Shown here piece by piece: positions 566 to 1,247 of a stretch of DNA of 1,261 bases. Origin of the DNA: Naegleria gruberi (Eukaryota); the NCBI GenBank assembly GCA_000004985.1, contig GG739468.1, one strand, 5' to 3'. The position numbers and the translations under genes were made by a program. The number at the start of each line of letters is the position of its first letter. Within the stretch, counting starts at the first letter, position 1. The notes beneath the pieces were generated by a model, which worked only from the letters and a program-made list of their open reading frames with translations, was not told the DNA's origin and did no database searches.

Positions 566-1057
566 ATGCAAAATCCCAACCTTCTCTATACCAACTATTT
601 AATCTGTGTTATGGTAGGCCTTCGTGGTGGTGTTGTAGAATGTAATAAATTTGTGGAAAGTCTTGGCAGTTCAATCATTTCCAAATCATCATCTCTTCTC
701 TCCTCTCAAGAATCACTCTTTCTCAATAGTTCATTCCTATCAGAACAACGTCGTCGTCATGGAGGTGAATTTAAATTCAGAATGAATCAGAGAATTGCAT
801 TCCTTCAAGGAAATTCATTCACTCAATGGTCCAAGAATGATTATTTTAAAAATGTTAAGGAATTTAATTATGGTACTTTTGAGAATGGTGCGAAAGAATT
901 CTCGAGAGCAGATCAACTTTACATTTTGAATGAGAAGGAACAATTGGAATCAGGTGGATATGAAGCGATTTTATTATCATGGAGTAAAGTTGACATGTCA
1001 TACAAGAGAGAGAAGGTAATTGAGAATTTGAAAAGGAATTTTAAAGAATTTGAATGA
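566..1057 (+). CDS. Hypothetical protein, 163 aa. Orphan and Ser/Lys/Glu-rich, with a hydrophobic N-terminal segment (possible signal peptide or membrane anchor). No domain recognised.
   Basis: A 492-nt ORF from ATG (566-568) to TGA (1055-1057). The ATG is directly preceded by a 9-A run (558-566), the A-rich start context typical of AT-rich eukaryotes. An in-frame TAA lies at 557-559. G+C inside the ORF is clearly higher than in the nearly pure A/T flanks (e.g. 87-160). Codon third positions are mixed. An alternative in-frame start (ATG 611-613) would give 148 aa. No similarity to any family I can name from memory. The Ser-rich low-complexity stretch (aa ~32-59) is encoded by a TC-rich tract (687-724). 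Confidence 0.45.
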   Translation: MQNPNLLYTNYLICVMVGLRGGVVECNKFVESLGSSIISKSSSLLSSQESLFLNSSFLSEQRRRHGGEFKFRMNQRIAFLQGNSFTQWSKNDYFKNVKEFNYGTFENGAKEFSRADQLYILNEKEQLESGGYEAILLSWSKVDMSYKREKVIENLKRNFKEFE

Positions 1058-1124
1058 ACTGTTTTATAAAAATAACAGTATTACATCGTAGTTGGTTCGT
1101 AGACTTCATTTTAAAGAGGTGAAT

Positions 1125-1243
1125 GGCTACGGCCATATCACGATGAATGCACCTCATCCCGTCCGATTTGAGAAGTTAAGCATCGTCGAGCCACATCAGT
1201 ACTGAGGTTGGAGACAACTTGGGAACCTGTGGTGCTGTAGTCT
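1125..1243 (+). rRNA. 5S rRNA: 5S ribosomal RNA gene, about 119 nt, apparently intact.
   Basis: Sequence reads GGCTACGGCCATATCACGATGAATGCACCTCATCCCGTCCGATTTGAGAAGTTAAGCATCGTCGAGCCACATCAGTACTGAGGTTGGAGACAACTTGGGAACCTGTGGTGCTGTAGTC. It contains the universally conserved 5S blocks: 5' GNCTACGGCCATA, loop C CATCCCGTCCGAT, AAGTTAAGC (box A region, +49..+57), GTACT...GGAGAC...TGGGAA (box C region, +75..+101), and the 3' GGTGCTGTAG. The 5' end (GGCTACGGC) is complementary, with G-U pairs, to the 3' end (GCTGTAGTC), forming helix I. The length matches the canonical ~120 nt. A T5 terminator follows immediately. Confidence 0.93.
1173..1225 (+). promoter_or_regulatory. Internal control region of the 5S gene: box A-like, intermediate element and box C-like, for TFIIIA/TFIIIC.
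   Basis: AAGTTAAGCATCGTCGAG at +49..+66 matches the box A region of type-1 Pol III promoters. GTACTGAGGTTGGAGACAACTTGGGAA at +75..+101 corresponds to the box C region. Positions are by analogy to the Xenopus 5S ICR (+50..+97). The assignment is by position and conservation only. Confidence 0.5.
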
Positions 1244-1247
1244 TTTT
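1243..1247 (+). terminator. RNA polymerase III terminator (T5 run) for the 5S gene.
   Basis: TTTTT at 1243-1247 sits directly after the 3' helix-I strand of the 5S gene (…GCTGTAGTC|TTTTT CTT). Pol III terminates in runs of four or more T on the non-template strand. Confidence 0.7.

Follow-up and report, generated by a model that had tools for sequence, protein, structure and literature searches.

In Neurospora crassa and S. pombe, 5S rRNA genes are dispersed as numerous gene-sized solo copies, each of which has flanks of its own among unrelated Pol II genes and relies on the internal promoter and a T-run. Also known are tandem arrays of 5S rDNA that include a non-transcribed spacer, and 5S genes linked into SL RNA or histone repeats. 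Yeast tDNAs and Pol III genes can serve as boundary, insulator and roadblock elements. For Naegleria gruberi, 279 putative 5S copies have been listed and labelled as tandem (PMC3369914, Table 1 and Table S1). The same study reported that the 5S genes of this species are not linked to the rDNA plasmid, and that TFIIIA is absent (PMC3369914).

The locus described here places one of these 5S copies directly behind a protein-coding gene. It resembles the dispersed 5S genes of N. crassa and S. pombe in having solo copies, unique flanks, a putative internal promoter and a T-run, and it differs from them in that Naegleria belongs to the Heterolobosea, the copy number is higher (~280) and the spacers are much tighter (genes 14-200 nt away). 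With tandem or linked arrays it shares a 5S gene close to other same-strand sequence; however, there is no fixed period and no conserved spacer, and the neighboring gene is single-copy and unrelated. As at yeast tDNA boundaries, a Pol III gene sits directly beside a Pol II gene and roadblock or barrier effects are conceivable. The putative internal control region and the T-run are as described in the published catalogue, whereas neighboring protein genes are undiscussed in that paper (PMC3369914).

A protein-coding gene and a 5S rRNA gene on one small scaffold

The window, i.e., the whole stretch of DNA analyzed, is an entire N. gruberi scaffold (JGI scaffold_1200) of 1,261 nt with 31% GC. Its features are as follows:

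1-565, no strand: AT-rich non-coding region, presumably intergenic plus promoter (GC 24.8%)
566-1057, + strand: protein gene NAEGRDRAFT_77082 (XP_002668008.1), encoding a stand-alone DUF8192 (PF26612) protein of 163 aa
1058-1124, + strand: spacer of 67 nt, read from the sequence
1065-1076, + strand: putative one-mismatch poly(A)-signal variants, TATAAA (1065-1070) and AATAAC (1071-1076)
1125-1243, + strand: full-length 5S rRNA gene (Rfam RF00001), dispersed copy R33388 (PMC3369914, Table S1)
1175-1181, + strand: box A-like core of the internal control region, GTTAAGC (5S positions 51-57)
1206-1221, + strand: box C-like segment, GGTTGGAGACAACTTG (5S positions 82-97; 14/16 by eye)
1243-1247, + strand: T5 run, Pol III terminator, read from the sequence

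The original prediction was that an intact 5S gene follows an ORF on the same strand, and this juxtaposition was confirmed, with the ORF at 566-1057 and the RF00001 match at 1125-1243, both on the + strand. The gap had been given as 68 bp; it is short and lies on the same strand as claimed, but the exact count is 67 nt, as 68 is the distance from base 1057 to base 1125. Both the ORF and the 5S copy are already in public annotation.

The ORF begins with ATG, ends with a TGA stop codon at 1055-1057 and is the sole long ORF of the window. Its product matches “predicted protein [Naegleria gruberi]” (EFC35264.1/XP_002668008.1) with 100% identity; the single contig on record for this protein is 1,261 bp long, so the window is a complete scaffold. 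The GC content is 34% within the ORF vs 25% upstream, where it falls to 13% at 51-150. In the upstream region (1-565) we found no long ORFs, no Rfam matches and no tRNA. A tRNA scan of the whole window likewise returned none, and the search of the window against all Rfam families gave a single match, to 5S rRNA. Positions 51-200 (13-16% GC) are dense in short inverted and direct AT repeats.

The 5S gene matches RF00001 with 105.4 bits (gathering score 38; E-value 8.8e-24) across model positions 1-120 of 120 and is not truncated. No non-canonical pairs were flagged in its helices (the NC line of the cmscan alignment is without “v”). The copy corresponds to row R33388 (“scaffold_1200 1128-1244”), which belongs to the commonest similarity class in the table and has its start placed 3 nt later than that of the Rfam model (PMC3369914, Table S1). 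By eye, the box A core GTTAAGC fits the quoted consensus N(G/C)(C/T)(C/T)AANC, and the box C segment is a partial match, with 14/16 positions of G(G/A)TGGGNG(T/A)CCN(C/T)NNG (PMC3369914). A TTTTT at 1243-1247 directly ends the gene; a run of four or five Ts likewise closes the other full-length Naegleria-type copies, with the exception of one (L014).

Spacing of the Pol II and Pol III transcription units

The explanation that we favor, and consider likely to be correct as a whole, is that the window holds two independent and unrelated transcription units that are neighbors by chance, a Pol II DUF8192 gene and a dispersed solo 5S gene. As part of this explanation, and with the same confidence, the junction would neither come from a 5S tandem repeat unit nor be specially evolved. 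The DUF8192 mRNA would most likely end inside the 67-nt spacer, ~30-40 nt past the stop codon, by way of the variant hexamers at 1065-1076. The gene-internal control region would direct Pol III initiation at ~1125, with termination at the T5 run (1243-1247), and the two units would be expected not to interfere with each other. The close spacing would result from very short 3′ UTRs and intergenic regions combined with a dispersed 5S organization.

The 3′ UTR, the poly(A) site and whatever promoter element Pol III may use upstream of the 5S gene must all fit into the 67-nt spacer. A canonical AATAAA is absent from this interval (1058-1124), and thus an mRNA 3′ end within the spacer can only be inferred. 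The variant hexamers TATAAA/AATAAC (1065-1076) are followed by a GU-rich stretch. Based on direct RNA sequencing, N. gruberi has a median 3′ UTR of 39 nt, and its poly(A) signal AAUAAA precedes the cleavage site by ~15-20 nt, with UGUA on the upstream side and a U-rich region downstream (PMC11529991). If the variant hexamers are used, cleavage would fall near 1085-1096 and give a 3′ UTR of ~30-40 nt, close to the species median.

On the 5S side of the spacer, AT-rich boxes are found at −60 to −50 and −16 to −9 of the 5S start. As the flanks differ between copies, no specific upstream 5S promoter element can be claimed. We also considered whether a hairpin after the stop codon (6 bp, 1058-1079) and the fold of the whole spacer are structural elements, and rejected both because they do not fold better than shuffled sequence (z = −0.15). 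An exact 10-nt direct repeat, ATTTTAAAGA, occurs at the ORF end (1038-1047) and again at 1108-1117 (−17 to −8 of the 5S gene), and is probably due to chance in AT-rich DNA.

We compared the junction with other loci in N. lovaniensis and in environmental sequences. Across the 21.5 kb that surround the DUF8192 homologue in N. lovaniensis, gaps between adjacent CDSs range from 26 to 851 bp, with four out of 11 being ≤99 bp, and the stop codon of the homologue itself is 60 bp from the ATG of the next gene. In this species we also noted a tRNA gene (L001 4330-4400, − strand; 66.9 bits) located 98 nt from the start of a CDS for a cNMP-binding-domain protein.

A scan of metagenome contigs using a 32-nt core of the window 5S gene returned 13 contigs, all 13 of which carry exactly one 5S gene. 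These contigs represent relatives (~42% protein identity) and not Naegleria itself, with the exception of one (L006) whose 5S gene differs by 1 nt. On the same strand, solo 5S genes follow the ends of genes after 14, 78 and 198 nt, and other genes start or end 32-129 nt downstream of a solo 5S gene. The adjoining genes were verified using Pfam (E-values 1e-10 to 1e-41) and include those for Arb2, a carbohydrate-binding/EGF protein, a SNF2 helicase, a FGGY kinase, a CitMHS transporter, a phospholipase D and an alpha/beta-hydrolase. In total, a single 5S gene lies between different Pfam-verified genes at the 13 environmental loci and at one N. lovaniensis locus, where two unrelated genes, 654 bp apart, flank the solo 5S copy (L026).

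The tightest of these junctions is on contig L010, where an Arb2 ORF (290-1441; Pfam E-value 5.7e-39) is followed on the same strand by a 5S gene (1456-1512) after a gap of 14 nt. This gap is too short for a typical separate 3′ UTR, so the Arb2 mRNA probably overlaps the 5S gene. The best named relatives of the Arb2 protein are from N. fowleri, N. gruberi and N. lovaniensis, the two best being ~42% identical over 97-99% of the length. Therefore, the contigs derive from a heterolobosean-like relative and the C-terminus of the Arb2 protein is authentic.

One of the two explanations offered originally was that the ORF is real and the junction unusually compact. The gene and the juxtaposition are indeed real, but the compactness is not unusual: the median 3′ UTR is 39 nt, gaps of 26-99 bp are common and genes in relatives end 14 or 78 nt from a 5S gene. 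A 67-nt junction is normal for the gene-dense Naegleria lineage. Such tight spacing is expected for a genome with 39-nt median 3′ UTRs and ~280 scattered 5S genes, and the finding is an ordinary one.

The two units could instead be functionally coupled, either by Pol II reading through so that the 5S gene lies in the 3′ UTR, or by a 5S gene bound by TFIIIC/TFIIIB acting on the upstream gene as a roadblock terminator or boundary, in the manner of yeast tDNAs. We consider such coupling unlikely. The 67-nt spacer without a canonical AATAAA would be compatible with it, as would the Arb2 gene of the related genome, which stops too close to the same-strand 5S gene for a separate 3′ UTR. A hand count at the 13 loci also gave a mild excess of co-oriented gene/5S neighbors (~12 vs 6), which is not significant. 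However, one-mismatch hexamers are placed right for a 3′ UTR of ~30-40 nt, in line with the 39-nt median, and the neighbors of 5S genes are unrelated genes in every orientation. The adjacency of ORF and 5S gene, moreover, is not conserved: the original prediction had proposed looking for 5S-adjacent orthologues, and there is no 5S gene within 10 kb on either side of the N. lovaniensis DUF8192 gene.

There is a more general version of this idea, to which we give only a slim chance, that heterolobosean solo 5S genes could act as Pol II termination or boundary elements for same-strand genes ending 14-80 nt upstream. If so, the DUF8192 mRNA would either be terminated by the 5S transcription complex or continue into it. 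Given gaps down to 14 nt in its relatives, Naegleria may be a possible system for studying how Pol II 3′-end formation and Pol III initiation coexist.

The DUF8192 gene and its relatives

Returning to the reading of two independent units, we evaluated whether the upstream unit is a genuine gene. Counting any of the six frames, ATG ORFs of at least 163 codons arose by chance in none of 5000 mononucleotide shuffles, in one of 5000 Markov-1 sequences and in three of 5000 sequences with the composition of the ORF. The composition is eukaryote-like and the ATG is preceded by an A-rich context. A homology check of the 163-aa product had been suggested along with the prediction, and it revealed a conserved family: an exhaustive phmmer search over 1.84 billion representative sequences retrieved 40 proteins at E ≤ 1e-3.

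The top homologue is a 487 aa protein from N. lovaniensis (E-value 7.9e-22), which shares 45% identity with the ORF product over its C-terminal 140 residues (43-45% identity between comparisons). It is named “DUF8192 domain-containing” in UniRef and has the precomputed Pfam label PF26612, and precomputed annotation assigns PF26612 to the window ORF too. Our local Pfam-A scan of the ORF and 10 homologues, the N. lovaniensis protein included, reported no family, and the PF26612 model is presumably absent there. In an alignment of 28 sequences, none of the six invariant columns (E49, G82, K90, F94, W139 and K141) is altered in the window protein, nor are five of the six near-invariant ones; at the sixth, D133 is replaced conservatively by E. 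Based on sequence comparison, we conclude that the ORF at 566-1057 is a real, uncharacterised gene of the DUF8192 family. We found no literature on NAEGRDRAFT_77082 or its twin (see below), on DUF8192 or on dispersed Naegleria 5S genes.

The twin is a second N. gruberi protein, NAEGRDRAFT_62329 (166 aa), encoded on a scaffold of 941,567 bp. It differs from the window protein by two substitutions (G22S and A107V) and an in-frame GGG (3-codon) insertion. The existence of this near-identical twin on a large scaffold suggests that the window is probably a haplotig or recent duplicate of the main-assembly locus. The insertion is at window 755-765 (codons for RRRHGGEF), where the twin has HGGGGGEF vs HGGEF, a microsatellite-like in-frame indel between copies or alleles.

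We also considered that the ORF could be the last exon of a larger fused gene, and rejected this, as a tblastn search with the NHL and TM portion of the N. lovaniensis homologue gave no match ahead of the ORF. The match of the N. lovaniensis protein to the window is confined to the DUF8192 part (nt 602-991). As there is no NHL-like or TM match upstream, the N. gruberi gene, like its bacterial counterparts, is stand-alone. The 487-aa N. lovaniensis protein carries an NHL-like region and a TM segment ahead of its DUF8192 domain, and ~1.4 kb upstream of its gene lies a separate NHL gene in the opposite orientation. Only the NHL-like part is present in the N. fowleri relative (P0047), and only the DUF8192 domain in N. 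gruberi.

Outside Naegleria, all named homologues are from Bacteroidota (Cytophagales, Flavobacteriales and Chitinophagales). Combined with these, the matches from a scan of species-representative genomes are also all from Bacteroidota, including Reichenbachiella, Vicingaceae, Flavobacteriales, Flavisolibacter, Chitinophagaceae and Chryseolinea. The bacterial homologues are ~135 aa and look secreted, with signal-peptide-like N-terminal segments. In common with the window protein they have a domain of ~110 aa, its invariant E, G, K, F, W and K residues and a C-terminal motif, SGGY(D/E)A..(V/L)SWSK; in the window protein, a hydrophobic segment at the N-terminus takes the place of the bacterial signal peptide. 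Some homologues (P0003, P0004 and P0007) have a tandem two-domain form. Because every named homologue outside Naegleria is from Bacteroidota, the window gene is a candidate for horizontal transfer from bacteria to Naegleria.

Such an origin raises the alternative that the ORF is what remains of a Bacteroidota gene transfer, decaying or silent and not expressed, in which case there would be no real Pol II/Pol III junction. The restriction of named non-Naegleria homologues to Bacteroidota is compatible with this, as are the lack of a homologue of the DUF8192 part among annotated N. fowleri proteins and the absence of literature on the gene. We nonetheless regard a relic as improbable. The reading frame is intact in both N. 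gruberi copies or alleles, which are separated only by the in-frame indel and two substitutions, all the invariant residues are retained, and a homologue has been kept in the deeply diverged N. lovaniensis. The eukaryote-like composition and the A-rich context before the ATG also argue against decay.

Genomic organization of 5S rRNA genes

We parsed the published coordinates of the N. gruberi 5S genes (PMC3369914, Table S1). The 279 copies are on 117 scaffolds, 57 of which have a single copy. The 162 distances between neighbors on the same scaffold span 462 bp to 413 kb (median 33.9 kb). No recurring period was found among these distances, as no 100-bp bin below 6 kb holds more than three. The largest clusters comprise three copies with irregular spacing of 2.2-5.5 kb. 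Thus, the N. gruberi 5S genes are dispersed, not tandem, and the published “tandem” statement is contradicted by its own coordinates (PMC3369914). This corrects the label and places N. gruberi with Neurospora or S. pombe.

The flanks of individual copies lead to the same picture. The 70 nt upstream of the window 5S gene share 41% identity with those of the nearly identical environmental copy (L006) and 20-40% with those of other copies (ungapped), the latter range being the AT-rich background. A repeat search within the window detected short, chance-level repeats only, and its two ends have no match to each other. Because flanks are unrelated between copies, the repeated unit is just the 5S gene and its T-run.

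These data also bear on whether the juxtaposition is an assembly artefact of an unplaced 1.2-kb scaffold, with a chimeric join at a repeated 5S copy. Among the listed copies, 31 out of 279 are on small scaffolds (numbered ≥200), suggesting that 5S copies break the assembly. However, the window extends 18 nt past the 5S gene, the 67 nt that join the gene to the ORF are unique with no sign of a junction, and equally tight spacing of genes and 5S copies occurs in independent assemblies, which makes an artefact very improbable. The second explanation offered originally, that the ORF is an open frame of no meaning that happens to lie in the non-transcribed spacer of tandem 5S rDNA repeats, could appeal to the tandem label in Table 1 of PMC3369914 and to the window being a tiny unplaced scaffold, as is often the case with collapsed repeats, but is rejected given Table S1 coordinates with no repeat period and at most three loosely clustered copies, a window with one 5S gene and non-repeating ends, unrelated flanks around other copies, and an ORF that belongs to a conserved family and has a length beyond chance.

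Comparison of the 5S genes themselves showed that the window copy and the environmental Naegleria-type copy (L006) agree at 118 of 119 positions, and that the window copy is fully identical to the N. lovaniensis solo copy over about the first 103 nt. In the latter (L026 13188-13306, − strand; 67.9 bits), a T-rich tail replaces the 3′ strand of helix I, and this copy is probably a truncated pseudogene. Truncated N. gruberi 5S copies of 80-112 nt are also listed (PMC3369914, Table S1). In the 5S genes from the VFQM/VFQO metagenome contigs (L002-L005 and L007-L013), we detected compensatory double changes within one helix, with the variants GCGTAG/CTGCGC, GTGTAG/CTGCAC, GCATAG/CTGTGC and GCTGAG/CTCAGC, which may represent several strains or functional variant copies.
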